Source: Novakomyces olei (lineage: Eukaryota). From it: DNA of 64,000 bases. The notes beneath the pieces are model-generated. The model did not search any database and had not been told where the DNA came from. It saw only the letters and a list, made by a program, of their open reading frames with translations. Numbering within the stretch: position 1 is the first letter of the stretch; each line of letters begins with the position of its first letter. Of the stretch, positions 4,256-58,420 are shown in pieces. The stretch covers positions 1,178,001 to 1,242,000 of the forward strand of contig JADEYG010000015.1 in NCBI GenBank assembly GCA_016906335.1, in the 5' to 3' direction. A program made the position numbers and the translations under genes.

Positions 4256-6385
4256 TCAATACAAGCCCGGTTTGCTGTCAAACAACTGGATTATTGCATC
4301 ATAGCGCTGGATTTGCGTCCACAGTTTCAGCTCAATAGCATTGTACTCTTCAGTTTCTCTTAATTCCCAAGGCTGTAGTTGCACTGCATCGCTTGCACCG
4401 TTAGGCACAAGAAGGCTTTTGCTCTTGACAGACCTCTCCCTTAACGCCTGCTGGACCCGTAAAAGCGTGGCCTCTCGTTTCCGTTTTTCCGATATCATAC
4501 GCTGCCAGCAGAGAAGAATCGTTGTTTGAAGCATTTCAACAAGAACTGCATAAGCCCTGGCGGGCTTATGGAACCATAAAAAAAATGTTTTACTTGGAGC
4601 TCGGTCTGTTCCACGGGGGACTTCTTGCAGATCAAGTGCTCCGAAAACGCAAAGACTTGTTAATATTGAGCGTATATCTGTTTGTTTGACCAGGGCAATA
4701 TTTGAAACATGCTTTTCATCCATCATGCCCGTATTTCGTATCACCATCAGGACACGTCGGGCCGATATACCGAATTTTTGTCGGCAAATCTCGCCGTACT
4801 CCAGTTCCCGAATACGATCACGGACTCCTTCAAAATCAACGGCCCAAGCACCGGAGCCACGATCTTCCCTTTTCACAACAAACCGGATTCCGTCCTGTGC
4901 AAGAGCAGCTAAATGGTCATTTATCTGTTTAAGACGGCCTGCATATTCGTTAACGTTTTCCTTCGCTAAAGCTCCGTCATCGTCGTCATTGTCATCGTCA
5001 TCAAGGTCGATGTCGTCATTCTTATGGTCATTCGTGCTCATATCGTCTTTTATAGTGTCTTCTGCCACCTCTGGCGGGCTGGCAAACCCTTGTGATAAAT
5101 CTAAATCAGACGGAATGCATCTTAATAGCTCTATAGTAGACACAGCGAGCTCTGTCGGATAAGTTAGGGTTCACAAATTATTATGAATCAGAATATTGTA
5201 CCATAGTACCAATATTTTAGTTAAATTTAAGAAAATATTCTTAAAAATGTAATGTAGAAGCAATATAGAACGCAATATTGTAATAGAAAAACTAAAACTT
5301 ACGCCGAGTGTCGACATGGCAATTTGGAATGTCCTTTTCCAGCCTTAACAAAAGATGATTATAGACCTTTGCAGTAGTCTCTGAAAGACGATGCCCTGCT
5401 AGATCCACCAGCTCAGCCCTCCGAAACATGACAAGGAATTTCCCGTGGTTGATTCGTACTATTGCGTCCTCCTGAACATGAGCAACACGATGCAAAGGCA
5501 GAATTTAAAGATGGAAAAGCAGAGCAAACAGTGGAGATTTTAAATCACGCACGCCAAGTTGGATTGGCCTGTACAAAGAGAATTTACGAAACACAAATAG
5601 TAAAGTTACCGCAATTTCATAGGCTTCTTCCTCTTCATCTTCTTCAGCAACACGCCGCCGCTTACGAGGCGCATTGGCGTCATTGCCAGTCTTCAGTAGC
5701 CCCGTAGTAAAAGCAGTCTCGTACGCCCACTTTTCCTGCACTCGTACTGTCTCTTGTTGAATCCGTTGTCGGCGCGCTGTTTCCGTCATTCGCTTTTCCT
5801 CCGCTATTTGGGCCTCCACGTCTCGATTCACATGAGCCAGCAAATCGTACCGCAGCCTCAAATCACGTGCCTGGACTTTTACTAGAAGGTTACGCTGTAA
5901 CAGATCCACCAAAGCTGGCCGAAACTGAGGAAACACAGAGAGAACGTCGTCCAAGCGCGACCGTCCATGAATAGAGACAAACTTGACAATTGCCGCTGCC
6001 TCGTTTGAAATTTCGGCAGCAGTCACAGCGACTTCACGGCCCACGCGCAAACAGTCGTGCACTGCAAAAGGCTCACACTCATAATAAACTGTATCTTCTC
6101 CGCCTACCGAGTCCCATTGAGACGCGTACCGAGCGTAGCCATGGCACAAAAGCGTTACTAAGCTCTGCAGAATAACCCTTCTCGGCAGCTTCGTGCGAGC
6201 TGCAATTTGCCGTACGGTTGAACGGCCGTGGTAGAGTAGTGCCTTGCCCACACTCTGCAATATCGTTAGTCGAGCCACGTTTTTCCCATTTTCTTGAAAT
6301 TTTATTTATCTGAGTATACCGCGACCACAGGACCGTGAAATTCTTGAAGCGCCAGCACTGCAAGATCAGCGGCCGCACGAGACAT
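4256..6385 (-). CDS. RPC82: RNA polymerase III subunit C82/RPC3, 4 exons
   Basis: MSRAAADLAVLALQEFHGPVVA|SVGKALLYHGR N-terminal HTH; C-terminal LQEVPRGTDRAPSKTFFLW signature. Confidence 0.92.
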
Positions 6386-6450
6386 GCTGCAGGCGTCTGT
6401 CTACAGCAGTTTGCGCATAATACAAAAAATTGTTTGGATTAATAAATTGA

Positions 6451-6970
6451 AACGCCTTCCTACAGTGTCCAACTAACCCTAATCACTTAGTATAACCTGA
6501 AGCGCACTACTATTGTGGCCAAGCTTCAGGGTTAGTTGGACAACGTAAGAAAGCGAACTAGGGTTAGTTAGACACAATATCAGTGGGGATTAGGGTTATC
6601 GGACACGGAAGAGGTGGGACTAGGGTTAGTTAGACATATAAGAGGGGGTACTAGGGTTAGTTAGTCACATAAGATTGGGAACTAGGGTTAGTTAGACATG
6701 TAAGAGTGGGCCCAGCATAGGGTTAATTGGACGCAGAAAGAATGCGGAGTAGGGTTAGTTAGACATGTAAGAGTGAGGCATAGGGTTAGTTAGTCACAGA
6801 AAGAATGTGGAATAGGGTTAGTTGGGCACCGAAAGAATGCAGTTTAGGGTTAGTTGGACACTAGTTGGACACTAGTTGGACACTAGTTGGGTACGTAAGA
6901 GTAGGGACTAGGGTTAATTTGGCTCCGTAAGGGTTAGCTAGGGTTAGTTGGACAACGTAAAGAGTGCGGT
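6451..6970. repeat. Degenerate tandem array of ~13 direct units (30-35 bp) plus one inverted unit; core TAGGGTTAGTTRGACAC
   Basis: AGGGTTA recurs at 6528, 6560, 6592, 6622, 6653, 6684, 6719, 6751, 6782, 6814, 6846, 6910 and 6940. Inverted copy at 6451-6482. Internal 11-mer (CTAGTTGGACA) triplication at about 6851-6890. Confidence 0.95.
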
Positions 6971-7297
6971 TAATTCATATTGGTCTGTATAAAACTTCAT
7001 CCATAGTATCAAAGGCTATTCGTCCTAATTATAAAATGGCTTTTAGTTTAGCTCAAACAACGCCTCTCGAGTATTGCCCTCAAATCTCGAACTGGTTGTA
7101 ATCTCAATACTTAATACTAACCCTGGTATTTGTATATAATAATTGGACAACTGGCCAACACTTCGAACTTTTAACTAAATAAATATATCTACTATACCTA
7201 CTATACTTCTAAAATAATCGCAATCTCTTGTAAACAGCGTAAAGAGCGACTAGCGCGACTTGGCCGCAATGTCCTCGCGTGGCATATAGCTGATGTC

Positions 7298-10183
7298 ATG
7301 CAAGCAAACGCAGAGTATGTCGAAATTAATAGCGATGACGATGTCTCGTCACTGGACCAGCATGTAGATGTGGATGGATCTGAGGCTTCAGGCGCAGAAA
7401 CACTTTCTCCACAATCAGATATATCAATCGAAGAACTCTCTGCGCCTCAGCAGCAGTATACAGTTTTCCGGCAAAGGTTTCGATCTCCTGATACCGATTC
7501 TACGGCCTATCCTTCTTCAGCTTCGCCGTCGTCTACAGTAACGGAGGATCAAGCGTTTAGAAATTCGATTGTAAATACCAACGCTGCTTCTTCCTCTCTT
7601 GGATTTGGAGAAGGGTCCATGCCCACAGAGCAATCTGGTCTCGAATCCGTTCCAAAGCCATTACCTCTGTTTATTGAAGACTCTTCGGACAACGAGTCGT
7701 CAAAATGGGACAGATTGAGGATTCGTGCGAAGCCGGGCCAGGCAGACGATGCTGACGAGGATAACGACGATAGCAATGGAGCTGATTATGATGACAACGA
7801 GAAAAAGCATAAAATTAATGCTCGCTATACAGGAAATGATCATTCAACCGATTATCTCATTGACGGTCGCAATGGACATGGCTCTGGAGCGCGTGACATC
7901 TTTAGGGATATGCAGGGACTCTTCGTGCCGGAAAGCCCAATGGAACTTGATCGGCCGCCGGAAAATGATGACGAGGAAGATGATTCGTTCGTTGATTGGG
8001 ACGACAAACAGTTCTGGCGTGATTTTGATGGTCCTCCTGCCGCAAAAAAGAGACGGTTTGAGATCAGGCTATTTTCACCGGGGTTTCCCAGCGCATTTAC
8101 CTCGCTGGATCAGGATCTCTCGGAGCCCAAGTACCAACAAGTTGCATTTGACCATTTTGAAGAGACGGCAGAGATTGAGGAAATACGTAAAAGTAAACAC
8201 TTGTCGTCGTATAGCAATACTTCAGGGTTAAGGCCTCCCCTAGTATCGGTCAAAGAGCCCCATGGCACAGCATATTCAGACTATCTGGGACCTGAATTAG
8301 AGCAGTTCAAGCAAGTGTACAGTGCTGACCGACCTTATCTGAGCGACCGGGCTAGGCAGGCATTGGCGTATGCTGGAGGTCTTGAAGAGCTGGCTAAAGT
8401 AAAGGGCAGAATAATCCATGTGGACTTTGATAGACACGAAATCATGTACCTGAGACAAATGCTGGAGGCAGTCTATGAAACTAGCAAACGACCTGCCGAT
8501 GGCTGGTCCAGGATCTACTTGAAGAAAGCACTTGCCAAGGAAAACGTTGGCTTCCGTAGAAATGCGGATGATTGCTATAAGTTTCTGGAGGACAATAATA
8601 TTTCTGACTTGAGCCGGTACTTGTCCAGTTTGCCACCCACACCATTCGATTCGCAGATCGCAAATACTCCAGTGCTTTATATAAAAGCAGTTTCCGGAAC
8701 CCCGTGCTCCATCCAGCACAATCGGACCCGTTTAAAAGCGGGTCCTGTGGCGCTGATTAACCGCAGTATCGCCCGCTCCGGGGTTTTGGCAGCGCACGAT
8801 AGGACGACGGTCCAATCTCTGGTGAATTACACGTTTGCGAAATCAGGAGCCTTTCCACTATCGAGTGGGGATGTACTTGAGATCGCGTTCAGTTCAGTGG
8901 CCAATCTAATGAGCATGTGCTCCCTGTCTATAATGAACGAATTCAACCGGCCCGGCAACCTGTGGATGGGCGATCTTGACAGACGCAAGGCAAAATTCCT
9001 GAATGCTCATCGTCGGGGCCCCGACACGTACATGACCGTTAGCAGTACAAAGTTCACAAGGGACGGTGACTATATAGTGTCCGGGTCACATGATTCCACT
9101 ATCCGGCTATGGGACACTCAAGGCATGGAGCAGTTAAAGTTGCAGGACCATGGAGCGGCCGTAAACTTTCTTGACTCACATAGTGTAGAGCCGAGAGCGA
9201 TTGTATCTGCGTGCCAGGACGGCCGTATTTACCAGTACAGATTTGCGAGTGCAGATATACATGACTATACCCGTTTTGCTATGGCAGTACCGGTCGGGTT
9301 GAAGCGTAACTTGGCCGTGGCCACTGTCGCCTATGGCCAGGGTTACTTTTGTGATACAATATACGCTGGTTATGAGAACAGTAACGTTAACGGGACAAAT
9401 ATGGGAGCCCTCGGCGCCTTTGATGCGGCCACGGGGACGCTTAAACAATCCATTATTCCCTCTACTACTTCACACGCCTCCATCTTTACTCACCCAACAG
9501 TACCGTTCTGGGTGACGGGCAGTATGACCCACAAGGACAGTAAAGTCAGGCTCTATAGTTCTTACGATAATCGAATGATCATCGAATGCGATTCCCGGCA
9601 ACGCGATTTGAATACGGTGACAATGTCACCCTGCGGCCGGTTCCTCACGTCCAGTGGCACCGATAATTCTACGTTTGTTTTTGATGTTCGAATGCCTGAT
9701 GATGTGCTGCACGTCCTTACTCATGGAAATTCACAGCTGCGGGCCCAGGGCGATGCCAGGTTCGAGGACCTGGATTTGGGCGTCAATTTTGCAGTTTGGA
9801 ACCCTATTGATAACGGTAATACTTTTCTTTCTGGCGGGTCAGATGGCACTGTACGGTTATGGGACGTTAAACGTGCAGAGCCGGAAATACTGACCATTGC
9901 AAAGTTTGATTCCGGTGTTACGTCGGGAGCAATTTCGCCTGATTGTACGCGGATTTGTATTGGGCAGCAGTCGGGGAATATGACGGTTCTCGAGACTGGG
10001 TACGGGGGGAGTTGCCAACCGTTTGCTGTTGACAGCAGGTTTGCCCAGTCCGCGCCTGGTGCTGAACAAGGCATGGAAGGCGATGATCACGAATCGGCCC
10101 GTGCTGCTAGAGAATTGCTTGATGAAGGTCGTGTGGTTGTACGCGAGACGCCGGAGGGGTTACGGTTCGTTTATGCCGCGTAA
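7298..10183 (+). CDS. WD40 protein with long acidic N-terminus; likely Raf1/Dos1/Clr8- or DIM-9-like DCAF
   Basis: 961-aa intronless ORF with a C-terminal WD40 propeller (SGSHDSTIRLWD, SGGSDGTVRLWDVKR). The SSGDV...NRPGNL segment resembles the Raf1/DIM-9 family as I recall it. Confidence 0.65.
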   Translation: MQANAEYVEINSDDDVSSLDQHVDVDGSEASGAETLSPQSDISIEELSAPQQQYTVFRQRFRSPDTDSTAYPSSASPSSTVTEDQAFRNSIVNTNAASSSLGFGEGSMPTEQSGLESVPKPLPLFIEDSSDNESSKWDRLRIRAKPGQADDADEDNDDSNGADYDDNEKKHKINARYTGNDHSTDYLIDGRNGHGSGARDIFRDMQGLFVPESPMELDRPPENDDEEDDSFVDWDDKQFWRDFDGPPAAKKRRFEIRLFSPGFPSAFTSLDQDLSEPKYQQVAFDHFEETAEIEEIRKSKHLSSYSNTSGLRPPLVSVKEPHGTAYSDYLGPELEQFKQVYSADRPYLSDRARQALAYAGGLEELAKVKGRIIHVDFDRHEIMYLRQMLEAVYETSKRPADGWSRIYLKKALAKENVGFRRNADDCYKFLEDNNISDLSRYLSSLPPTPFDSQIANTPVLYIKAVSGTPCSIQHNRTRLKAGPVALINRSIARSGVLAAHDRTTVQSLVNYTFAKSGAFPLSSGDVLEIAFSSVANLMSMCSLSIMNEFNRPGNLWMGDLDRRKAKFLNAHRRGPDTYMTVSSTKFTRDGDYIVSGSHDSTIRLWDTQGMEQLKLQDHGAAVNFLDSHSVEPRAIVSACQDGRIYQYRFASADIHDYTRFAMAVPVGLKRNLAVATVAYGQGYFCDTIYAGYENSNVNGTNMGALGAFDAATGTLKQSIIPSTTSHASIFTHPTVPFWVTGSMTHKDSKVRLYSSYDNRMIIECDSRQRDLNTVTMSPCGRFLTSSGTDNSTFVFDVRMPDDVLHVLTHGNSQLRAQGDARFEDLDLGVNFAVWNPIDNGNTFLSGGSDGTVRLWDVKRAEPEILTIAKFDSGVTSGAISPDCTRICIGQQSGNMTVLETGYGGSCQPFAVDSRFAQSAPGAEQGMEGDDHESARAARELLDEGRVVVRETPEGLRFVYAA

Positions 10184-10462
10184 TTACCGATTTGTGTAGT
10201 CGTGTTATTAGATTTATGCATTCAAGAGTAGAAAAGGAAGACTTTATTGCAATATGGTCTGTGCAATTGTAGATGTCATATCTGCATTGGTGCAATATTG
10301 TAGTCATTAATGTAGTTATTGTAATTATGTCAGGGTTAGTCAGGGTTAGGGTTAGTTAAGTTGTAATTATTGTTATTATGACCGTGGTTTATTCTGTATT
10401 TTCTTCCACGTATTATATTCACTATATGATTACCACTAACTTTAGAATTCATCACAACCGCA

Positions 10463-11671
10463 ATGTCGGACGCAGAGGCTGCCGAGTTGGAAAAACAAAA
10501 ATCGCAGGCAAATGTTGGGCTCGACGACGATTCTGATGACTCTTTGTCTGATCTCGATGATGAGCAGTTTGCAGATTTTGATGAGTCTTCGATCGGCGAA
10601 CCTACTCAGTTTACCGTGAAGGATCTACCATCGTTTAGGCGTAAGAAGGATGCTAGCGTAACTGAGCCACATGAGCCCCGTAAGGCTCGCTCAAAGCGGG
10701 AAAAGACGCGGCCAAAACCTGCTCGTCGGACTAGGACTGAAGTAGCTGGGGAAGAAGAGTCAGAAGAGCAACAACGGCCTGCTGATCCCATTTTAGCAGC
10801 CAAATGGGATTTAGATCAAGCAATCAATGCTTCCGTAGCTACGAACAAACGCAAGCGCAAGCCAAATGATGAGTACGATTTAGAACAGATGGCAGATGAT
10901 GAAATTATGCGCCTTAAAGACGATATGCGTTTGGCCGCGTTGGAGGATGCAGAGGCTAATACGCGCCACGAGCCGGCTACAAAGAAATTAAATATGCTCT
11001 CCCGCGTGGAGGATACGTTGCGCAAGTAAGTGTTGGAGAAATAATATCGAAAATAAAATTGGGAATTAAGGGTCTGATTAAATTAACATTATAGGGCATC
11101 GTTACATGACACAATTCTTGACAATAACCTTCTTGAATCAGTGCGTATGTGGCTCGAACCTTTACCAGATCGTTCGCTGCCTGCTCTTAATATTCAGCGC
11201 GTTTTGTTTAAAGCGCTGGTCCAACTGCCCATTCAAACTGACCATTTGCGTGAGTCTGGGGTGGGAAAAGTTGTTGTCTTCTACCAGAAATCACAGCGAA
11301 CTGATCCCACGATCAAACGAGTTGCAGACCGGTTGATCGGTGAATGGAGCAGGCCTATAATTAAACGATCGGCCGATTTCAGGGACCGGCAAGTCGCTTC
11401 CGTGGAATATCGGCCCAATCCGGCTTATGCTTCTAACGTAGCGGCGCCCCAGCAGCCAGAGGATAAGCTCCGTGCAAGGGCGGCTATTCCAAGGGCTAAT
11501 ACTGAGACTTACTCAATAGCTCCTCGCACGAATTTAAATACATTGCCTCAAGGATATCGGACTCAAGATACAGAGCAAATTCGAAAAATCAAAGCTCGTA
11601 TGCGGGCGGCTAAAGCAGAAGCAGGCCGGTCACGTAAAGCTACTGTTTCTATTGAAGGAAGAAACGCTTGA
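10463..11671 (+). CDS. SPN1: Transcription elongation factor Spn1/Iws1, 2 exons
   Basis: EPATKKLNML...K| intron (GTAAGT at 11026) |...WLEPLPDRSLP...LRESGVGKVV...WSRPI, the IWS1 domain. Confidence 0.95.
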
Positions 11672-27500: not shown

Positions 27501-29058
27501 CTACGATACGTACTTGGAGTTTGCACAAACATTGGCCGGTCATGGGCTTTATGGAATAGGAGCCAAGTATGCTCAGCTTGTGCCCCGTGATTACTCAGAC
27601 GCAGGCAATTTGGCAGCTTTTTATTCACAAATGGCCAAGAACGAAACCCAATTTTCTTCTCAAAAATACATGTCGCAGCAGCAGTCGGCTTTACCCTCAA
27701 ATCTACACACTTATCCGGCCAAGTCAGCGTCTGTTTTACCCACCGGCAGTAGTAGCTACTCTCCACAGGTAGGGCAGAACGCTTATACTGCCCCAGGGCA
27801 GGCAATGTACGGGTTGCATAGTGCCTACCCGGCTGTGGCGGCTAGTGCCAATTCTGCTTTTGCTTCCAGCCCGAACCCGTACGCTCCCTCTACTCCCTCT
27901 GTGGCAGCAGAGTCCCTGTCCCGGCCGCAGGGACTGCAAGGTCCCCCCTCGGGGCCTGCTTCTTCCCAAGGTCCCCCCCTTACACAAGGCCCACCTCCTC
28001 CGCATGCAGGACTGGACACGACGATTACTGGCCCGCCCGCTCGACCGAGTCCAGGGCTGAATCGGAACGTGAACGGATGGAACGATCCTCCTTCAGTGGC
28101 TTCCGGCACGGCGCCTCGTCGGGCTCCGAGCGCGGCTCCACGAGTCATTAGCTCACCGTTTCCCAATGCTCCTTCTCCAGGGTTAGGGTTAGGGTCACCT
28201 GGGCCTGCCCCTCCGTCCGGTCTGCCTCCGTCCGGTCTGCCTCCGTCCGGTCCGGCTCCGCCTCCAAAAGCAGGGCAGCCTTATTCAAGACCACCTTCAG
28301 CTGCTCCGGGCCAAACGCCTCCAGCGTCAGCTTTGACCGGTCTGCCTCCGCCTCCACCAAAATCAGAGACTCCAATCACAAGCTTCCCCGTAGCCAGAGG
28401 AGCTCCGTCGAGTCAGTATGCTCCTCCGCCAGGATCACTGCAACAGAAACCGCCCAGTCGAGGACCCGCAGGGCCAATGGCAACTAGTCCTTACAGAGGG
28501 CAGCCTCCTCTACAGGCGGCAGCTACTCAGTCCCCCTACGGACATCCAGCTCAGACTGCTTATACTACAGGACCACCAGGACCCGTGCCAGCAGCCGTTC
28601 CAGGTCCTCCTCCAGCTCGAGCAGGCACAGTTTCTCCTGCTTTATCGTCTGTACGATCAGCGAGTCCAGCGGGAGTCGGACTGCGCTTTCCGGCCGGTGA
28701 TAGATCACACATTTTGCCAGAAAATATCGATATTTACAGAGTACTGAATGGCGAATTTGAGCAGGTAAAACGGGCGGCCCCACCCACGTTTCAAAGGCAG
28801 CTCAACGATATTGAACGTCGGCTCAATTTGATTTTCGATATACTAAACAATGGAGCTCAGGGATTGAGTGAACAGCTACTAGCAGAGCTGAGGCAATTGG
28901 CTGCGGCTCTGGCTGTACACGACTTTGCTCAGGCTCATTTGCTGCATATAAATATGTTGACCACGCATACAGAGGAAGGTGGGCAGTGGCTCGTTGGTGT
29001 GAAGCGTCTTATTGACGTATGCCAGGCTTTAAACGTTCCGCGAGGTCACCGACGCTGA
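24558..29058 (+). CDS. SEC31: COPII coat protein Sec31, 4 exons
   Basis: [17 protein letters not shown] start, WD40 propeller, PPKWY, Pro-rich region with [15 protein letters not shown] and [12 protein letters not shown]-terminus. Confidence 0.97.
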
Positions 29059-30247: not shown

Positions 30248-30540
30248 AACTGTGCCTGCAATTGCCGCTATCGCATGCAACTCGCTAGTCAAGTTTTGAG
30301 GCCGATTATTCCTGCCCAACAGCTATTGTCTAAAGTAATAACCCTAACTAACCCTACTTTTATGGAAATTGTGTCACCCTTATTTTGTGGAAATTGCGTA
30401 GTGTACTATAAAAGGCAAACCCTTGTGTCAGCAGACCAAGAAAACCCTGCCGGTATACCCTTGACCCCGAAATAAGGCGTCACAAGGCGGACGAGTAGAT
30501 AACGGTAGCGGCAGGCATTGACCGCGAATTGCAGCCTGAA

Positions 30541-33406
30541 ATGTCGTCCAAAGAACGTAAATAGTGCCTTTTATGTGACTTGCTACTGACAAACTAAAAG
30601 TTTCCACGTGGGCGGCTAGTCCCGCAACACAGCGTTCAGTGACCGTACACTTGTCTGCAGATCCCAAGGGCGAGCGATTGGCGTACGCGGTATGGCTTTC
30701 ACGACTTTATCTTGCATTTTACTTTAATGTTTTCGGACCATTTTAGTTTAATTGAATTGTACTGCCAGTCGGCTCGACTTTTTTATCATTTTTCCAAAAG
30801 GTCCTTTGCCTTTTTTTTTGTTCTTTTCTCTATTCATTTATTTTTATTTATTCTTTATTTTTATTATTCTTTTGTAATCGATTGTTGTGCTCTCTTCCTG
30901 TTTGGTTCATTGCTCATCGTGAATGTAGGCCGGCCGCTCCATTTTTGTGCGCAGTATTGAGGAGCCAGAAGACTGTTTCCAGTACCGTGGCCATATCGCA
31001 CATACAACGGTAGCCAAATTTTCGCCTTCAGGATTTTACGTGGCCTCTGGTGATCAACACGGAAACGTGCGTGTGTGGGACACTGTGGGACAAGATCATA
31101 TACTCAAATGCGAAACTCAACCAATTTCCGGCAAAATCACTGATATTGCTTGGGGTAAGTACTGTTACCTCGATGGCTAGTACTGAATTACAGATGGTGA
31201 AAGCAAACGTATAATCGCGGTCGGTGACGGAAAAGAACGGTTTGGACATGCTTTCACTTTTGATACTGCGAATTCTGTCGGCGAGGTGGGCAATTGTCTA
31301 TTTAATATTTTTTTGCTTTTAATTCTTGGATATCTTTTATGTTTTATAGCAGATTGATCCTCTTTTTTTCCTTTTTTTTTGGGCAATAAAACTGGATGGC
31401 AATGCTAATTACGACAGATTTCTGGTCATTCCGCAATAGTTAATGCTGTCTCTATGCGGGCGCAAAGGCCGTTCCGTGCCGTCACCGCCTCTGATGATCA
31501 TGCTATCGTGTTTCTCACAGGAGCGCCATACAAGTACAATAAACTTATTCGTGTGCACTCAAAATTTGTGCAAGATATTGCCTTTTCGCCGGACGGATCT
31601 TTTTTCGTCTCTGTTGGAGCTGATTCGAAGATTTTTGTTTTTGACGGAAAGACAGGAGACCTGGTAAAAGAGCTCACTGCTGGTGATAATAAAGATGGCC
31701 ATGTGGGTACGATTTTCGCAGTCAGCTGGGACCCAACTTCCAAGTATATAGCTACTGCTGGCGCCGATGGAACCGTTCGCAAATGGTCAGTACAGGAGGC
31801 AAAGATGGAGTGGTACGTGTTGGAACTAATTTTATTTTTCGCCTTACTTTCTGTTGCAATATGGGATTTTTAATTGTATATAAACATAAAATTTCGTTAT
31901 TTTTACAAATTTCCCGTTATTCACCGACTTTGAGCTTTCCCACTACCCTGATTTGGGGTCCGTGTTGTTTGGGTTTGACTGCCTTTTATTTAAAATTATT
32001 CTGGCTGCTTCCATTTGTTAATGATAATCTCTTGTATTCTCAGAGTATCGTACTAACGGTAGTGTGTGGGACTTGAAGGACGATAATACAGCATCTACTT
32101 CTAATCAGCAGGTAGGCATTGTATGGACGAGCAAGAACAAGATTATTTCCCTGTCTCTCAGTAGCGATCTGAATTACCTCGACGAGTCGCAAGACAAGCC
32201 TGTACGGGTAGTCCAGGGCCATCAAAAGGCAATTACCGCTATGACTGTTCGTGAAAAAAAGGACAAACTGTTTACCGCCTCTTACGATGGGCGTATGTTA
32301 TCTTGGGACATTTCCAAAGGAATTGCTCATGTACTCGATGGCTCAACACATACAAATCAGGTCATGGACATGACTAGCGATGGTGATTTTATTGTTTCTG
32401 TCGCAATGGATGATACACTGCGTATCACTGATGGAAATACTGATACAATTACGTAAGAAAACACAAAATTGGCTATTTATCTTTTTCTAACGTTATAATC
32501 AAGCGGAACCGTTATAGCCACGGACAGTCTGCCCAAGGGTGTGGCTGTCTTGGGGGGCGGGTTAAGGATTGTAGTTACTGTCAGCGAGATTCATGTTTAT
32601 AACGGAGAAAAGCGGACAGAGACGGCAAAAACACCTTATCAGCCTAGCGCTGTTGCCGCTTGTCCTGGGTCGGATAATTTTGCCGTTGGTGCAGAGGTAC
32701 AATTGATATCATTTGATATATATTTACCTACTTTTTTATTATTTATTAATTACTTGATTATTTCATTTTAAATGTTCTAATCTCTAGGATAACACAATTC
32801 ATGTCCATTCTCTAAACAAGAACGGAATGACGGAAATCGCTGTGCTTACAGGGAATAGGGCCCAAATTACACGTTTAGCTTACTCCAACGACGGACGGCT
32901 TTTGGCAGCGGGCGATGCTTCCGGAAGAATAGTACTGTACGATGCAAAGACACGGGAAGTAATTACGTCCCGTTGGTCTTTTCACACTGGCCGTATAACT
33001 GGTTTAGCTTGGCACATTGATAATATTCATATTGTCTCTTCCTCGCTTGATACTAATGTGCACATTTACAAGTATGACACCGAAGCTTTTTTATTTTTAT
33101 TTTTATTTTTATTTTTATTTTTATTTTTATTTTTATTTTTATTTTTATTTTTATTTTTATTTTTATTTTTATTTTTATGGCTTCAAAATACATTAGTCAA
33201 GTTTTTTTTTCCAAAGATTGTATCTCTTGTTTTAATGTATCTCTTGTTTTTCCAATGCTAATTATAGCACGGAAAAACCTCTGAGGCATATCGGTATTAG
33301 CAATGCCCATCTTGACGGAGTGTGCAGTGTTGCTTGGGAGAGTGAAAGCATTATTCTCAGTGCAGGGAGTGACGCATGTGTAAAGCGCTGGAAAGTCGCA
33401 TTTTAA
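30541..33406 (+). CDS. AIP1: Actin-interacting protein 1 (WDR1), about 9 exons
   Basis: TVAKFSPSGFYVASGD, GERFGHAFTFD-like segment, QRPFRAVTASDD, GHQKAIT, SRWSFHTGRI. Confidence 0.95.
33087..33178. repeat. (TTTTTA)n microsatellite in the last AIP1 intron
   Basis: About 15 perfect hexamer copies. Confidence 0.95.
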
Positions 33407-33559: not shown

Positions 33560-33700
33560 TCTCCTTTACTATTTTTTCCTTCTCTATTTTTTCCTTTACT
33601 ATTTTTTCCTTCTCTATTTTTTCCTTCTCTATTTTTTCCTTTACGATTTTTTCCTTTACTGTTTGCCCTTACTATTTTTTCCTTTACGACTTTTCCCTTG
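33560..33700. repeat. Pyrimidine-rich 15-16 bp minisatellite (ATTTTTTCCTTCTCT / ATTTTTTCCTTTACT) between the convergent AIP1 and CYK3
   Basis: About 8 degenerate copies. They generate the spurious FFPSL-type ORFs in the track. Confidence 0.85.
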
Positions 33701-33883
33701 ATTATTATTATTGGATTGTTCTCCATTATTTCTTTATTCTTGACTGTTTTACCATTCTGCTCAAACTTGCTAACTGGTATCCCTTTACTCTACCTCGTCT
33801 GTACTCGTGCCCGCGCTTTTATTACATTCTCTTTGTATTCATACCTTCAACTATGCCCTACTCATCACATTTGTACACACGTT

Positions 33884-44639: not shown

Positions 44640-44830
44640 TATAAAAGTTTGGATATAGTTAGTCTAGCCATAGCAATTGTAAGCCAGAATTAGTTAGGGT
44701 TAGGATTAGTTATCTTACCCTAACACTTTTATAAATGCTGGCAGAAATAATCTTTAATATATCTTTTCACAAAACAAGGAGCATTTCACACAATAAAAGT
44801 CTTATACAAACATCTCTATAGGTTTTGTAT
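44640..44830 (+). repeat. Dispersed telobox-containing element, copy 1 (upstream of calcineurin A)
   Basis: GGATATAGTTAGTCTAGCCATAGC...AAGCCAGAATTAGTTAGGGTTAGGATTAGTT aligns with the reverse complement of about 58255-58420. Confidence 0.8.
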
Positions 44831-46986: not shown

Positions 46987-47487
46987 AAATTGGTACGTTG
47001 CAGTCTATTAGACAATATTTGACACTGAAAAGGTTTTGTACATTTTTCGCAGGCCAGCAACAGTACACGTTGCTCGGTCCTGATATATTCAATGAAATTT
47101 GTTTGTTTATTTATTTATACATATGTGTGTGTATATGGTTCATAGTACATTACGGCAGTACATATCTGATTTGAATATTATTTGGAAATCGACAGCTTCC
47201 ACTGTGCTCGCAATAATGTAGACTGCAGGTTAGGGAATGCCCTCTGCACAGCACTATTCCATTACACTTTGACACGATTTGACGTGTCGACACGATTTGA
47301 CGTGTCGACACGATTTGACAAGATGCTTCGAGACAGATTCTACAAAGTGTTGTGCAGAGATTAAAAGACAAGATACGCACTATATACACTCCCCGTCCAC
47401 GCTAGACGTGTCGCCAATGCTGCAAGTTTTATATATTTTTTAATACGTAATTTTGCACTGCTTGTGCAATGCTTCCACATTCACAAA

Positions 47488-49058: not shown

Positions 49059-49114
49059 CAACGTCGAAATTGACTACTTTTGAGAGCGCGTGCCGAGCGG
49101 GTTAAAGGCACAGA

Positions 49115-50839
49115 ATGGATGAGGGCGCTCCGGCGGTTTTAATGCCGGAAATAGTGGTGAATATTGAGGCAATGAGTGGGCAGAAACGAAAGTATGAGGA
49201 AGGAGCGAACGGCGCTGCGCAAACACCGCAAGCGCGATTGGCAAAATCAGCCAAGAGTGGTTCGAAAACTGTAGCGGAAATTGATCGTGAGCAAAAGCAG
49301 AGACTGAAAGCTGAGCTGCGTGAACAAAAAGAGCGGGAAAAACGAGAGCAGGAAGCGGTTCGGCAACGTGAACGGGAGAGAAAAGAAGCGGAAAAACGGG
49401 AGCAGGAAGCAATACGGCAGCGAGAGAAGGCCAAAAAAGAACGGGAAAAACGAGAGCAGGAAGCGATACGGCAGCGCGAGAAAGAGCAGAGAGACCGTGA
49501 GAAGCGGGAGCAAGATTTGGTAAAGCAGCTGGAGAAGGACAAACGCGAACAGGAAAAGCTGCGTAAAGCGGACGAGAAGCGACGGGAAGAGGACGGGAAA
49601 CGGATGAAACGCGAACGGCAGGAGAATATATTGAAACAGCAGCAAAACAAAATGGCCAATTTTTTTTCTTTTTCTTCAAACAACTCTCCCGTCAAATCGG
49701 TTCAGCAGCAGCAGGAGCCAGTAACGATTGACGTGGATTACGCTGCTAATGTCTCTGACTATGAAAAGACGTTTTCCCCTTTTTATGTTAAACCCGGCAC
49801 TGTGCTCGAAGGGGGTCCGAGAGCGTCTACAACGACTTGTCAAGCGATAGATCTGGCGATAAGCGCTAACGCCGAGAACATTGATGCTGCTAAGCAATCA
49901 AACAGGCCACAGTTTCCGGTTACGCGCCGGTGTTGCTGGAACAATGTCGTCCCCGTTACCGAGGTTGTAAGGAAAAGCAATAGCGCTACAAATGCCGATT
50001 CCTTAAAGTACCTTTCTCAGCTACAAACTGTGCCCTTTGTCCTGCTGAAATTCTCAGAGGATGTGAGGCCTTGCTACCATGGAACCTGGACACGTAAACC
50101 CACAGCACGTGGCTTGCAAACGGGGCGCAACCCGTTTGCAAGAGAGTCCATACTTAATTATGACTATAGCTCCGAGGCAGAGTGGCAGGAAGGCGAAGAC
50201 GAGGACGGCGAAGATTTGGATTCCGTCTCTGACGAAGACGAGGCCTCTGTCGATGAAGCAAACGAGGACGATCTTGCATTTTTAGATGACGACAATGACG
50301 AAGATGGTAATGATGAAGAAGGCGAAGCAAGGTCTATAAAGTTAAAGAGGCGGAGTGGAATAGCCACGGGACCTTTAGTGCCCGTTATTGAGGGCGTATA
50401 CTGGAGCAATATGTTTCCGGGCCACAAATTAGTAGTGCTATTAGACGAGGAAATTACAGGCAAACAGGCACAGCAGCCCATCGATCCTTTCCGGGACTAT
50501 TGGACGCCAGTTAAAGGGAATACTTCTACGGCTCTAATGCCCGGAGAAGTCAAGGCCGAGAGCATGGCCAATACTGCACTCACGCCTCGAGGCTTAGAGT
50601 CGCCTGGTGCTTCTCCCATCCCGGCCGATTTCCCACGGCCCATGCTCAAATCGTTTATTGACGCAGTACACGGAAGCCCGCACAACTCGTTGTTTCTCGT
50701 GGAAACTCTACGGCAAAAGTTTCCGAGTGTGAAGAAGAAAGTTATTTCCGAAACTTTGAAATCTGTGGCCCTTCGAACGGGGAAACGCGACACAGATTCG
50801 TGGGTTATCCGACCAGGAATTCGGAAGTTTATTTCGTGA
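49115..50839 (+). CDS. RLF2: Chromatin assembly factor 1 large subunit (Cac1/Pcf1/p150)
   Basis: KER coiled coil; PIP-like QNKMANFF; KFSEDVRPCYHGT; NYDYSSEAEW acidic ED domain; C-terminal winged helix. Confidence 0.93.
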   Translation: MDEGAPAVLMPEIVVNIEAMSGQKRKYEEGANGAAQTPQARLAKSAKSGSKTVAEIDREQKQRLKAELREQKEREKREQEAVRQRERERKEAEKREQEAIRQREKAKKEREKREQEAIRQREKEQRDREKREQDLVKQLEKDKREQEKLRKADEKRREEDGKRMKRERQENILKQQQNKMANFFSFSSNNSPVKSVQQQQEPVTIDVDYAANVSDYEKTFSPFYVKPGTVLEGGPRASTTTCQAIDLAISANAENIDAAKQSNRPQFPVTRRCCWNNVVPVTEVVRKSNSATNADSLKYLSQLQTVPFVLLKFSEDVRPCYHGTWTRKPTARGLQTGRNPFARESILNYDYSSEAEWQEGEDEDGEDLDSVSDEDEASVDEANEDDLAFLDDDNDEDGNDEEGEARSIKLKRRSGIATGPLVPVIEGVYWSNMFPGHKLVVLLDEEITGKQAQQPIDPFRDYWTPVKGNTSTALMPGEVKAESMANTALTPRGLESPGASPIPADFPRPMLKSFIDAVHGSPHNSLFLVETLRQKFPSVKKKVISETLKSVALRTGKRDTDSWVIRPGIRKFIS

Positions 50840-51796
50840 AATGTCAGTTGCAACTGGGCATGGCAATTACTGTATTGGGCTTACAAACACATAGATTAAA
50901 TTTACCATTTTGCATTTTCAAGAGCCTACACTCATACTAAAGAGCCGTATTTAAGAACATTTACCCGTCTCAAACCGAAGCCATATTATCTCCGTTCGTG
51001 TTTATCCGTCTTTTCATTGCTGTGTTCGCGTCGCGTTTATCGCTACGTTTCCGTGATCTCGTTACCCAATTCGGTAATGGACCGCGACTCATACTAGAAT
51101 TGATGATATAGTAAAAGTAAATAAAGGTATACAGAATAAAAAGTACGTTAAATAGCAGTAGGACATTAAAGGCCAGTCGGCCAAAAATGCCTCAAAGGCC
51201 GCAAAGGCGAAATAGGAGTATAAATACTGCAGTTAATAACCATTTATTCAAACAAATACTCTGAACTGACGAAAAACAAATACACTTGAATTTATAAAGA
51301 GGCTCACTCGATTGAACATGAGTAAAATCAAACGCTGTATCTGCCAGGTTTTACTGTGCCTCGACTTTCTGTGCAATGGAAACAGCGCAGTTAAGGATTT
51401 GGTTAGTTGATGACTCTTCAGGTCAATATCTGATTGGTAAGTTAATATGCTGGTTTGAGGCCTCAAAACTAATTGAAAAGATTCTAGAACTGAAGGAAAA
51501 ATGGGGAGGAGACGCAAAATTCTGCACGGACGATAGGATATGGATTTGGGGAGCCGCAATTAATGCATCATATATTCTTCTTTAGAGCATACAGGCACCA
51601 TAAAAACCCCATATGATGTAGAAATTTGGGTGTAGAAATGTAGCTAGTAGTCTTGTTCGACTGTAAAATTGTGAATAATGTAAACTAACTTGCCAAGGTA
51701 ACTTTGGCCTTATACAAAAATGACCATGCACGTAACAAAAAAAGAGGTTTCATTAAAATTAGTATTATATTATGTACAAGCATTTATAACAACACC

Positions 51797-53464
51797 TCAA
51801 TCTTTGGCCGGCTTGTCTGCAGGCCCCGGTAGCAGTGACCGAACAAGCACTTCGTCATTTTTATCAAGAAGAGGTTGAGCAACCAACGGCCCTAGTTGTT
51901 TTACGAGGGTTTGTTTGGCCTCTTCAAACGACATTCCCGAGTGCAGAGTCTGAACGTTGGCCATCTCTTCGTCCAAAAGGGTTTGTAAAGCCGAAACAAT
52001 TGCATTTAAATTTCTTTGTGCTTCCTTCCTTGTAATATTAGCCGAATCATTATCGTTGCCATTCTCTGGCGGGTGCTGTAAAGGTCCCTTGAGCAGCACA
52101 CTGTACAACTTTACGTTTGGAAGAATAATAAAGCGTACGACCTGCTGACCTAGCTGCCTTAAGCCTTGGATTGCTCCATAGTGAGTAGTCAATGGCTTTT
52201 TGTTGTCAAGGAAAGCTTTTAGTAGTGTTCGGGTTACACGCGGCCGTAACGTTTGGTAAGCATCGCCAAATTTATTGCATACCATGCCCAAAATACTGGC
52301 CGCGAGATCGCGTAAAGAATAATGATCAAAAGCGCCTTCTCCCGCAGTCAAAGGCTCATCGCTTCCCAGCTTTTTCGCTACTAGACACGTCAATATTGGT
52401 GCCATAAATTGATGGATATAAGGCTCAATAAAAAGACTGTTGTTTTCCAGTAGCGCTTTAGTCATTTGCATCATCATGTTGAGTACAAAAAGGCTCCGCA
52501 TTTCATTCGTGACTTTGTCCGCTATGAAATGTACAAAATAGGGAAGGAGCTGATGCAGTCCGGAATCGTGACTCAGACTGGCAATAGCTGCAGCGTTTAA
52601 TGAAGGATTAGACTCGTCCAAGAGGGCAGTTGTGACTTTTTCAAAATAAAGCTGCAGTTCCTGAGATATAACATGCTTTACTAGAGGCTTTACTTCGACA
52701 CCACTGTCGGCACCCGCACCACCAGAGGATACACCTTCATGGCTGCTTGCATGAAGAAGCATACTCGTACGGCTACCGTGTTTAACTTCGTCCCTGTGAT
52801 CTGTCACGAGGGGGTTCTGGGGGATAGCCGGCTGAACTCCTTCAATAGCGAGCCAGTGTGCTAAAAGTTAGAGTTGATCGATCAAGCTGTGTTTAATAAA
52901 ATCAGAGTTATTAAAAAAAAAAATACTCGTCCACTTGAAAAGATTATTTGAAAAGCACAAGCAAAACAAAAAAGCCGAGTTGGCCGTGCTCAAGTCATAA
53001 AAGATACAAATAAAACAATAGTACATGGTAAATAAAAAGAATGAAATATTAATGGCAAAGCAAACAACCAGACGGTCAAGCATACACGTGTAAGAAACGT
53101 CTCGGGGAACTTTGGGAAGGGGCATATTCACGATCTTTTCGAACTCGACTTCTTGCTCATCGAGATAATAAAGTGGAGGCTGTCCCGCCGCTAATACAGC
53201 GTCTCGAAATTGAACATCTCCATCCGTATTAAACCCGTAGAGAGGCTCAATATTGAGAGAGCGCAAGGCCATATCGATATCGTGAGTCGATAATATTGTA
53301 CGCTTAGAATGCCTCATGAACTTTACTGCTTCCTGAATAATTTCGTGAACGCGGTACTCTGCATCCATCGCAATAGCGCGAGCTGGATCTTCACCGAGCC
53401 CATTGATGCCAAGCGACTCGGCCACATCGACTATTGAGTCGGTGCTCAGCACGGACAAAGACAT
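51797..53464 (-). CDS. TAF6: TFIID/SAGA subunit Taf6, 2 exons
   Basis: H4-like fold DAEYRVHEIIQEAVKFMRHSKR; HWLAIEGVQPAIPQNP; KHVISQELQLYF; DSGLHQLLPYF. Confidence 0.97.
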
Positions 53465-53877
53465 TGGAGCTGATGATTGATGTGTGACCTATGCTCGCCA
53501 GATCATAGTCCAATTCGCTATCCTACGGTGTCGAATACGGCGCCCATTAGCAGATTGTAAGTAACCTACGCTTGTAGCGTGTCTGCCAATGATAGTAAGT
53601 ACTTTGTACTTACTTGAGAGGAGCATTATGGTATTTTACAGTCAGTTTTAGAAGACAATATTTTACAGCATTCAAGGACAAGTCTACTTGACAGTATGCT
53701 CAAGCAATTAAAGAGTCTTATTACTGCGCAAGACTATAGGCACCCAAGACCATATACAAACCTGACGGCTGCGTTACTTAATATCCGGCTTAGGCCGGCG
53801 AATGAGGATTGACTTAATCCTGCGCGATTGTAAAGCCAACCAGCAAACTACATTCCGCCGGAAATTGTGCAGTAAAT

Positions 53878-55003: not shown

Positions 55004-55875
55004 CTATTGTTCGTTTTCTTCTCCTTTATTGCCTTTGTCATCGCTACTGCCTTCAATGCCTTTGTCATCACCAGAGCTTAACTGATTCTCTTCATCCTCA
55101 TCAAGATCGCGATGATGCAGTGCTAAACCACCCATCTCGTGGTAATGGCGTTTTCGCATTTCTTCGAAGCGTCTATGTTTTTCTTCGGCCTCTGATAAAG
55201 TGAGTAAAGCGGAATAGATAAAGAAGTCAAAAAATAGCACTAAATGGGAATGGAGGACCAGCACGATTCAAAGATAGCAATACCAAAGAATTGAATAGAT
55301 TTGAAATATGGAGATTGCCAAAAGCTCATTATCAATATATAGAAGAAAAGCGGGAAAGCATAAATCAGCATAGAATAGCTGCAAATCTTACCGTCAGGCT
55401 CTTCTTCGTCAGCATCAGCGATATCCTCCTCGACATGAACGACCTTTGGACTGTCTGAGCGAGGCGCTGGTGGAGCTGATTCTTCTTCAGGCTCACCAAG
55501 CTCAAGCTCTGGGATCTCATTATCTGTATGCTTCTCTCCGCTTTGCTGGTAGATGGGATTTCCGCTCGCGTCAAAATCTAAATCCAGCTCAACCGGCCGA
55601 TGATGCTGAAAAGGGGTTTTTGGCTCTGTAATCTTCATTGTCGGCCACCGTTCTTGCTCATTGCGATATATATTAGCCTCGTCCCATTTAAGCTTAGTTG
55701 GATGGGGCTCTTCTTCATCTAGCGATCTGCCGTCCGTTGAAGGCATTGAGTTTTTGCGCGTATTTCTTCGAACTACTTCCGGATCTGCTGTAACAGCCAG
55801 TTCGGGTGATGAAGACACTTCATCGCGATTTCTTAAGATGCCTTTAGGCTTTTTTACCGGCGGTTCTTGAACCAT
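55004..55875 (-). CDS. GLC8: Protein phosphatase 1 inhibitor-2 (IPP-2/Glc8), 2 exons
   Basis: KGILR (SILK-like), KWDEAN, MKITEPKTP, FEEMRKRHY. Confidence 0.9.
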
Positions 55876-56183
55876 GGCTTCTCACCAACTGTATATATCT
55901 ATGACCATGCCTAATTCAATATATCCACTATTTCTTGGGTTAATATTTAATATTTAATATTTAGTATGCATTATACTATTATTTATAGTTATTGAATTAT
56001 TACTTAATATATTACTTTGGAAATTATTATAATTCTTATAATTATATAATAATATTAATACTATTATTAAACTATTTAATAATATAAATGATAAACTAAT
56101 TGAACTTAAACCTATATTTCCTACTTGTCGACAAAAGCCACTGGGTATGGTGGAACGGCAAAGCGACATGTTTACCTTATAAG

Positions 56184-56440
56184 AGTTAGGGTTAGTCAGG
56201 GTTAGTTAGACAATCCTAAGTATTCAGTGCTGGAGTTATCCCTATGAAAGACGAGTTAAGGAGTTAAGAGTCAGAGTTTTAGGAAACTAACCATAACCCT
56301 ACTTATACTATATACATAAATCAGGGTATGGGTAACTAACCCTAGCCCTGATTTATGTATATACTATGCAGGCTGTACCACACAGTAATTGATGTAAATA
56401 TCCGCACAGTAATTGATGTAAATATCCGCACAGTAATTGA
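56184..56440. repeat. Telobox motifs, an 18-bp perfect inverted repeat and a 24-bp tandem repeat
   Basis: TTAGGGTTAGTCAGGGTTAGTTAG at about 56186; TATATACATAAATCAGGG (56309-56326) / CCCTGATTTATGTATATA (56346-56363); CACAGTAATTGATGTAAATATCCG x2.5. Confidence 0.8.
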
Positions 56441-56515
56441 GTGTATATCTGGGGCATGATGTCAGTGTAACTCTAAGTTTGGTTGCAACAACATATATCG
56501 ATCAAGTTTAGCACT

Positions 56516-57689: not shown

Positions 57690-58130
57690 TCATCTGTACA
57701 CTCGTCCAATACCATTGCACACCCAACACTGATCATCAACTAGACCGAACATTGAAGATTTGTAACCCTTTCCGTAGCATTTTGGACACAATTGCCCCCC
57801 TAACCGTGGATCTCCTGCCGGGACCGTTAGAGGCCGTGGCGGGGTGGCACTGTAGCCATAGTTTGGTTGAGGAGGCGAATAATGCTGATACTGCTGGTAC
57901 TGCTGGCTTTGAACGTAACCCGAGCCCGGATAACCGTGATTAGTGGCAGACGAAGGCCGTTCTTGCGGTCGGGGTGGAGGTCTTGGCGGAGGAGGAGCAT
58001 TGTACCGCTGTGGATTGTCTGAATAAGGCCGATTATTATACCTGAAACCTTGAGTTTGTAACATGGATTCTTCGTATGACGGCGGCATTTCGTCGCCGCC
58101 GCCCTTGCGACCACTGCTGCCTTTGGACAT
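57690..58130 (-). CDS. HUA1: Hua1-like proline-rich protein with C-terminal Zn finger
   Basis: PPSY motif, Pro-rich centre, GDPRLGGQLCPKCYGKG...CWVCNGIGR. Confidence 0.85.
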   Translation of the reverse strand: MSKGSSGRKGGGDEMPPSYEESMLQTQGFRYNNRPYSDNPQRYNAPPPPRPPPRPQERPSSATNHGYPGSGYVQSQQYQQYQHYSPPQPNYGYSATPPRPLTVPAGDPRLGGQLCPKCYGKGYKSSMFGLVDDQCWVCNGIGRVYR

Positions 58131-58254: not shown

Positions 58255-58420
58255 AGAACCTATAAAACAACAATGGATGACACAGGATTATACAATTTTA
58301 TTGTAAAATGCTTGTTGAAAAGATTAGTTAGCCAGTTAGTGTTAGGATAAACTAATCCTAACCCTAACTAACCCTGGCTTTTTGCCGCTATGACTAGACT
58401 AACTTTATCCCGACATTTTA
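58255..58420 (-). repeat. Dispersed telobox-containing element, copy 2 (HUA1/SPE2 divergent region)
   Basis: Reverse complement reads GGATAAAGTTAGTCTAGTCATAGC...AAGCCAGGGTTAGTTAGGGTTAGGATTAGTT, matching 44640-44830. Confidence 0.8.

Follow-up and report, generated by a model that had tools for sequence, protein, structure and literature searches.

A phased promoter array of candidate telobox sites between RPC82 and a Raf1-like gene in Novakomyces olei

In the genome of Novakomyces olei (assembly GCA_016906335.1), a divergent promoter between the gene for the RNA polymerase III subunit RPC82 and a gene for a Raf1 (Rik1-associated factor 1)-like WD40 protein is occupied by a tandem array of a telomere-like word. 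The locus raises the question of why such a word should have been multiplied inside a promoter, and of whether its copies are retained by selection or are a by-product of repeat turnover. The array was analyzed within a window of 64,000 nucleotides, this being the whole stretch of DNA under study (contig JADEYG010000015.1, positions 1,178,001 to 1,242,000 of the forward strand), and all coordinates given here refer to that window. The array and its inverted first unit (6453-6970) fill 57% of the 912-bp gap between the two genes (6386-7297), and one 11-nt word in each unit is conserved far beyond the rest of the unit. We lean towards reading it as a minisatellite that has built up telobox sites within a promoter, to which a Myb protein of the Tbf1, Tay1 or Teb1 type would bind, and which would serve as a nucleosome-free or insulating platform.

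Anchoring on the heptamer AGGGTTA resolves the array into 13 direct units of about 31.6 bp on the forward strand (6527-6970), and the heptamer is present in all 13 of them as well as in the inverted unit. Each direct unit is made up of the 11-nt word TAGGGTTAGTT, the hexamer RGACAC and a purine-rich linker of 14-15 nt. Tandem Repeats Finder reports a period of 31 with 10.5 copies at 6528-6861 (score 228), together with a higher-order period of 62 (score 270), and the array thus has the several head-to-tail copies of a 10-100 bp unit that define a minisatellite. Across the window, the 16-nt core pattern is matched 19 times with at most three mismatches, against an expectation of 0.67, and none of 100 shuffles reached that number. 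Successive units are spaced by 30-35 bp in 11 of 12 cases, with a mean spacing of 31.6 bp, or 3.0 turns at 10.5 bp per turn, and they lie approximately on the same face of the helix. The one remaining spacing, at unit 11, measures 64 bp because this unit holds a perfect 11-bp microrepeat (TAGTTGGACAC, 3.6 copies, 6851-6890, forward strand; 100% matches and a score of 80 in Tandem Repeats Finder), the product of young slippage. The unit that follows, unit 12 (6909-6938), is degenerate.

The direct units are preceded by a full-length inverted unit, with both core and linker, on the minus strand at 6453-6484, which puts it 67 bp upstream of the ATG of RPC82. Over 28-31 nt it is 79-86% complementary to direct units (inverted pairs I1-I3), and it contains an exact minus-strand match to the 16-nt core at 6466-6481. 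The 42 bp that separate it from the first direct unit (6485-6526, as read from the sequence) are possibly a decayed unit. At the other side of the array, a short inverted copy of the box, ACTAACCCTGGTA, is found on the minus strand at 7116-7128, 170 bp upstream of the Raf1-like start codon (inverted pairs I15-I18). The description given in a first-pass annotation of this DNA, which counted about 13 direct units after one inverted unit and noted a period near three helical turns, is hence borne out on both counts.

Conservation within the unit was measured on a hand alignment of 12 direct units and the inverted unit, MAFFT having misplaced unit 3; the degenerate unit 12 was excluded and unit 11 was entered without its microrepeat. 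The word TAGGGTTAGTT departs from its consensus in only 3 of 142 cells, RGACAC in 15 of 78 and the linker (consensus CGTAAGAATGGGGAC) in 54 of 188, with mean pairwise identities of 96%, 72% and 56%, respectively. At 56% mean pairwise identity, the linker is itself not random sequence. Fisher's test of the first 17 nt (word plus RGACAC) against the linker gives P = 5e-8. The shared ancestry of the units was handled by counting parsimony changes on unit trees, on which the linker takes 39-41 changes. For the 11 telomere-like columns, the tree of the 13 units built from linker columns requires 3 changes where the linker rate predicts 28.6 (Poisson P = 1.6e-9), and the tree built from all columns again requires 3 where 30.1 are predicted (P = 4.4e-10). 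The corresponding figures for RGACAC are 12 changes against 15.6 expected on the linker tree (P = 0.22) and 10 against 16.4 on the all-column tree (P = 0.065). Because these tree counts place RGACAC near the linker rate, the specially constrained element is the 11-nt word TAGGGTTAGTT and not the 17-nt core, and the constraint on its columns is about ten-fold stronger than that on the remainder of the unit. The first-pass annotation had set a conserved core of 17 nt against a drifting linker. Tree-aware counting upholds that contrast and corrects its extent, since only the first 11 nt are constrained.

Neither duplication nor mutational bias can account for this pattern. Duplication or homogenization of whole units copies core and linker alike, and would not leave the one at 96% and the other at 56% identity. 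C-to-T mutation of the kind produced by repeat-induced point mutation (RIP) could in principle spare the 11-mer, which holds neither CpA nor TpG. The linker differences, however, comprise 31 transversions among 54, the other 23 being transitions, so that RIP fails as the cause of the contrast; the 11-mer shows three transitions and no transversion. With both explanations failing, selection on each copy is what remains.

The constrained word recurs through the window as a dispersed box. The form (Y)AGGGTTAGTT is found at six further sites, none of them in a long open reading frame (ORF). The word GGGTTAGTT occurs 17 times in the window, against 0.37 expected; six of these occurrences lie outside the array, and none of the six falls in an ORF of at least 150 amino acids, although such ORFs cover 55% of the window. 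Likewise, 13 copies of TAGGGTTA lie outside the array, against an expectation of 2.2. When boxes are grouped into clusters, two of nine lie in ORFs of at least 150 amino acids (binomial P = 0.05): the first consists of a pure (AGGGTT) run within Sec31-like coding sequence, and the second, at 1726, is probably in an intron. Wherever a start codon can be placed, the boxes stand about 70-850 bp upstream of it, in either orientation. The box is over-represented and stands outside long ORFs and, where start codons can be placed, upstream of genes, as promoter telobox sites do.

How the array came about can be read in part from the relationships among its units. Growth proceeded by the duplication of blocks of one and two units, as illustrated by units 6 and 7, which match units 8 and 9 at 56 of 67 positions (unit 6 against unit 8, 30 of 35), in agreement with the 62-bp period reported by Tandem Repeats Finder. 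Old for the most part, the array shows a mean identity of 72.5% over all unit pairs, and it is on this value that its age is judged. Units of this kind are also present beyond the array. A mini-array of three whole units, linkers included, lies on the forward strand at 688-800 (688-719, 720-751 and 769-800, located by pattern matches and unit comparison), which places it 280-390 bp upstream of the ATG (at 407) of a minus-strand gene for an M16 peptidase-like protein. Its first unit matches unit 11 of the main array at 28 of 32 positions and its second matches unit 10 at 28 of 33, which is as close as the nearest pairs within the main array; the unit was therefore copied between two promoters 5.8 kb apart. 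An inverted box, TAACCCTAAT, stands on the minus strand at 656-668, 20 bp before the mini-array, with a 10-nt exact match to 6474-6483, so that in both arrays the direct units come after an inverted box. The last six nucleotides of the 42-bp spacer in the main array, AAGCTT, align with the six that precede the first unit of the mini-array. Beyond the units, a comparison of the flanks of the two arrays for homology yielded only shared words of 6 and 8 nt, too little to define the ends of an element.

As a side observation, in both arrays a box of opposite orientation comes first (CCCTAA followed by YAGGG), at a distance of 20 bp in the mini-array (656-668 and 688) and of 46 bp in the main array (6466-6481 and 6527). 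This order is the reverse of the TTAGGGN6CCCTAA palindrome described for Candida albicans (PMC2834713), and it is based on two cases only.

Turnover of this kind invites another account, in which the array is an ordinary or selfish minisatellite, a useless by-product seeded from a promoter box, whose G-rich telomere-like core promotes slippage and recombination. The shared core of the classical hypervariable minisatellites offers an analogue. The array is indeed strongly G-rich on one strand, with a GC skew of +0.44 to +0.54, and the perfect microrepeat in unit 11 testifies to ongoing slippage, to which the block duplication in units 6 to 9 and the copying of units between loci may be added. 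Whole-unit turnover cannot, however, account for an 11-mer with 3 changes beside a linker with 39-41, and linkers that share only 56% pairwise identity indicate an old, slowly turning array. A second sample (run X2) has no insertion or deletion within the array and hence no length difference (listed piece, 6787-7239), which says little, as it differs only once in 12 kb overall; contigs of two further runs (X3 and X4) match the window at a coding microsatellite near 4972-5009 and nowhere else. We consider it unlikely, if by no means far-fetched, that turnover without function explains the array.

Selection on the word would be most readily understood if the word were bound by a protein, and telomere-repeat-binding Myb proteins are the likeliest candidates. 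Tandem-Myb proteins of the Tay1 family are widespread in Ascomycota and recognize a GGGTTA core, and one member, Schizosaccharomyces pombe Teb1, regulates transcription (PMC7952879). Teb1 binds the telomere-like HisBox, AGGGTTAGGGTT, in all canonical histone promoters (PMC4839565). Saccharomyces cerevisiae Tbf1 binds clustered TTAGGG with no rule of orientation or spacing, and C. albicans Tbf1 requires the palindrome mentioned above (PMC2834713). In divergent promoters, Tbf1 also prevents cross-talk of activators, and no other factor is as enriched at differentially regulated divergent gene pairs (PMC4551913). The GGGTTA/TAACCC element of teloboxes occurs in every one of the 13 direct units and also in the inverted one. 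The proposal of the first-pass annotation that fits best, namely a multivalent landing pad, would be in keeping with this element of Tay1-type proteins and with a box that is over-represented outside long ORFs.

What the analysis establishes is the array with its phasing, the constraint at particular positions, the excess and location of the box and the identity of the flanking genes; the protein, its binding and its nucleosome-free or insulating effect are what we infer in the following scheme. The 11-nt box TAGGGTTAGTT, present singly or in small groups outside long ORFs, would have seeded the array, and would then have been amplified together with about 20 nt of neighboring sequence, as blocks of one or two units slipped or were exchanged unequally, until 13 direct units and one inverted unit were in place. 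After amplification, linkers would have decayed while selection kept each copy of the box. The most likely reason for such selection is that a Myb protein of the Tbf1, Tay1 or Teb1 kind, specific for telomere repeats, sits on each box, with about 14 sites presented roughly on the same helix face every three turns. The resulting platform may exclude nucleosomes from some 520 bp and insulate the promoters of RPC82 and the Raf1-like gene against each other, much as single Tbf1 sites act in budding yeast.

Several observations weigh against this scheme. Units were found and aligned through the core, a procedure that favors the core somewhat; even so, the core is found in all 13 consecutive periods, which leaves room for few decayed units missed within the array. 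Periodicity close to a multiple of 10.5 bp can be fortuitous, and unit starts drift by about 5.5 bp in helical phase. Of the 29 TTAGGG hexamers in the window, 26 lie outside the array and only three inside it. Other promoters in the window carry from one to a few boxes, against about 14 here, a difference that the scheme leaves unexplained. The minimal Teb1 site is reported to comprise two adjacent telomere repeats, AGGGTTAGGGTT (PMC4839565). These are absent from the units, each of which has a single GGGTTA followed by GTTRGAC, and a scan for TTAGGGTTAGGG with up to one mismatch gave no match inside 6451-6970. Finally, loss of the Tbf1 site left nucleosome positions unchanged at the yeast promoter studied (PMC4551913).

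A different origin is suggested by the layout of the array, which might be the relic of a non-autonomous DNA transposon, with the units as subterminal transposase sites and the inverted unit and the last direct unit as its ends. The two do pair, through arms of 21 nt that are 90% complementary (6461-6481 and 6939-6959). This pairing is not specific to the ends, given that the inverted unit pairs equally well with every other direct unit. The locus at 688 has whole units in the same inverted-then-direct layout, and inverted boxes of 11 nt, perfect copies of each other, enclose a stretch of 148 bp at 56197-56344; both features would suit a mobile element. On the other hand, the longest direct repeat in the AT-rich flanks measures 5 nt among the 34 x 50 pairs of boundaries compared, and a 7-nt match at the 688 locus falls inside a unit. 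Termini common to the two loci are limited to the 6-nt and 8-nt words, and the depth of the source run is single-copy across bins 6401-7200 at 85% likeness or more. The constrained word is moreover that of isolated boxes outside long ORFs, and no transposase gene is found near the array within the window. The suggestion, made at first pass, that the units are subterminal repeats of a transposon is thus not supported: the boundaries tried showed no target-site duplication longer than 5 nt, no second copy in the window has the same termini, and no additional contigs of the source run align to the array at 85% likeness or more. We hold a transposon origin to be improbable.

The neighborhood of a Raf1-like gene suggests a role in chromatin. 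Internal telomere-like elements can promote heterochromatin in yeasts, and in Neurospora crassa (TTAGGG)8 at internal sites induces some H3K27me2/3, while (TTAGGG)17 induces a domain of about 225 kb (PMC5752202). By analogy with these inserted repeats, and with internal telomere-like repeats in fission yeast, the dense putative telomere-protein sites of the array could act as a chromatin-state or replication-timing element, nucleating or bounding facultative heterochromatin at the promoter of a heterochromatin ubiquitin-ligase subunit. The Neurospora induction with 8 to 17 hexamers and the presence of about 14 GGGTTAG cores adjoining the Raf1-like gene speak for such an element. Yet the cores are 31 bp apart and not contiguous, the neighborhood is dense with housekeeping genes and the same box precedes many ordinary genes, and the probability of this reading seems to us low. 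Lower still, by a little, we place a more elaborate conjecture, in which the array would be a sensor that couples the availability of telomere proteins to heterochromatin capacity. Depending on the amount of free protein, the pad of about 14 sites at the promoter of a gene for a Raf1/DIM-9-type subunit, belonging to the ubiquitin ligase of H3K9 methylation, would nucleate or block facultative heterochromatin, providing feedback on a gene of the silencing machinery itself and insulating the essential RPC82.

The strand asymmetry of the array leads to one further alternative, in which transcription towards the Raf1-like gene would let the G-rich strand fold into long-loop G-quadruplexes or take part in R-loops. 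Apart from the strong GC skew, there are four stretches (starting at 6585, 6616, 6644 and 6904) with runs of at least three G in which two of the loops are short and the third measures up to 25 nt. The array contains no canonical G-quadruplex with loops of 1-7 nt, however, and the linker G-runs that such structures need are poorly conserved, the constrained part being TAGGGTTAGTT; we deem a structural role very improbable. Two other candidates were set aside. The linker was compared by eye with SYGGRG, the consensus of CreA/Mig1-type factors, and only about 4 of 16 units fit. Searches against Rfam gave no match that reached the gathering score anywhere in the window, nor any with an E value up to 1 in 6200-7400, which disposes of a small nucleolar RNA or another known RNA as an explanation.

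Set beside known systems, the array most likely consists of telobox promoter sites in minisatellite form, and would thus be a variation on a known type of site. The fungal telobox sites of S. cerevisiae Tbf1, of C. albicans and of the S. pombe HisBox resemble the array box in having a GGGTTA word that lies outside long ORFs and, where start codons can be placed, upstream of them, in either orientation, and is over-represented (PMC2834713, PMC4839565, PMC7952879). Whereas those sites are single, paired or loosely clustered, about 14 copies of a putative site are here arranged in a regular minisatellite of 31.6-bp units, each unit has one GGGTTA followed by GTT, and TTAGGG appears in only three units. 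The enhancer-blocking Tbf1 sites of the PFK26-MOB1 promoter are similar in that sites with a telomere motif lie between divergent, functionally unrelated genes; in yeast promoters of this type one or two Tbf1 sites suffice and nucleosome positions are independent of them, whereas here the sites fill 57% of the gap (PMC4551913). The array differs also from interstitial telomeric sequences, which are contiguous telomere hexamers, as only 11 of the roughly 31 nt of a unit are telomere-like and the other 20 are not. Natural internal tracts in N. crassa comprise fewer than four repeats (PMC5752202). With promoter minisatellites that have a conserved core, the array shares a unit of 10-100 bp, a G-rich strand bias, block duplications and young slippage, and it departs from them in the roughly ten-fold constraint on one 11-nt word, which turnover alone would not lead one to expect.

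A further likeness concerns telomeres themselves. The telomere unit of Yarrowia lipolytica, GGGTTAGTCA, is one base away from GGGTTAGTT(A/G), and positions 10329-10348 are two exact copies of the 10-mer GTCAGGGTTA, which is the same Yarrowia unit in another register (PMC4839565). In a yeast, repeats of that unit are terminal or linked to ribosomal DNA, whereas here the word stands upstream of genes and within a 31-bp unit.

Sites for telomere-motif Myb proteins are known in yeasts as single or loosely clustered promoter elements, and filamentous fungi have been studied much less. A literature search of sources outside subscription journals found no description of a telobox array of this kind. 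If the favored interpretation is correct, the locus offers a natural phased array of about 14 copies, each with sequence-level evidence of selection. It would then be a place to study the number of sites required by a boundary or a nucleosome-free region, the growth of such arrays, and whether dense internal binding of telomere proteins influences chromatin beside a heterochromatin gene. It would also follow that most telomere-like words of this genome are boxes in promoters, a point of caution for searches aimed at the telomerase RNA template or at internal telomere tracts.

The genes that flank the array can be identified. To the left, RPC82 (4256-6385, minus strand, ATG at 6385, first exon MSRAAADLAVLALQEFHGPVVA) is recognized by the Pfam families HTH_9, RNA_pol_Rpc82 and POLR3C_WHD on the minus strand. 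To the right, the Raf1-like gene (7298-10183, plus strand, first ATG at 7298) carries WD40 families, and residues 560-942 of its product match S. pombe Rik1-associated factor 1 (chain 4o9d_B) with an E value of 1.2e-48, the next best chain being a generic WD40 protein at 2.3e-20. The earlier reading of the region as a divergent promoter, with an array directly upstream of a Raf1-like gene, agrees with both assignments, and the Raf1 label holds. On the Raf1-like side, 18 bp past the last unit, a TATAAAA (6988-6994, plus strand) can be read from the sequence and may serve as a TATA-like element. The rest of the window is gene-dense housekeeping DNA, including genes for tRNase Z, an Iws1-like protein and an acyl-CoA synthetase. 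Several chromatin and transcription genes occur in the window, with the Raf1-like and Iws1/Spn1-like genes (the latter with a TFIIS N-terminal domain) at 7298-11671 and those for the CAF-1 large subunit and TAF6 at 49106-53488, and their joint presence is probably a coincidence.

The dispersed boxes are spread over much of the window. A cluster on the plus strand, GTCAGGGTTAGTCAGGGTTAGGGTTAGTT (10329-10360), lies 103-134 bp upstream of the Iws1/Spn1-like gene (ATG at 10463). In the probable source run (X1), words at 10329-10358 reach a depth of 8840, against 1138 in the surrounding contig (about eight-fold), and several other contigs of that run end in the same box words, both of which lead us to conclude that the box is multi-copy in the genome. 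The box AACCCTAACTAACCCTA (30339-30356, minus strand) is found about 50 bp before TATAAAAGG, and a cluster formed by TTAGTTAGGGTTAGGATTAGTT and then an inverted ACCCTAAC (44690-44725, plus strand) lies between genes. The box TCCTAACCCTAACTAACCCTG (58356-58376, minus strand) sits in a divergent gap between a minus-strand gene (ATG at 58130) and an S-adenosylmethionine (SAM) decarboxylase gene (ATG at 59138). A larger cluster at 56181-56345 has direct copies at 56185-56212 and inverted ones at 56286-56300 and 56333-56344, and is located 306-470 bp upstream of the IPP-2 gene (minus strand, ATG at 55875). A metagenome scan with the 16-nt core returned at least 117 loci, 116 of them with a single match and one with two matches 2.5 kb apart; these matches are chance ones, with no arrays and no relatives among the matches listed.

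Other repeats are found near the boxes or elsewhere in the window. Centered on an inverted box of the larger cluster is a 29-nt inverted repeat (56305-56367, ATACTATATACATAAATCAGGGTATGGGT and ACCCTAGCCCTGATTTATGTATATACTAT), 86% complementary and with a 5-nt loop, which overlaps the 148-bp stretch already mentioned, whose bracketing boxes are at 56198-56208 and 56333-56343. The repeat resembles a MITE (miniature inverted-repeat transposable element), and a target-site duplication was looked for around it and not found. Beside the same cluster, the 24-bp unit CACAGTAATTGATGTAAATATCCG is repeated in tandem 2.7 times with 97% matches (56381-56445). In the Sec31-like coding region, which has WD40 and SRA1 domains, 2.8 copies of (AGGGTT) are followed by 3.4 copies of the 15-bp repeat CCTCCGTCCGGTCTG (28179-28260), and this is the only run of telomere hexamers in coding sequence within the window. 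An intergenic perfect tandem repeat of the 18-bp unit GACACGATTTGACGTGTC, itself near-palindromic, extends over 2.7 copies at 47271-47319. Finally, a perfect (TTTTTA) microsatellite of 15.2 copies covers 91 bp at 33088-33178, and a pyrimidine-rich repeat of 15/45 bp is found at 33562-33706.

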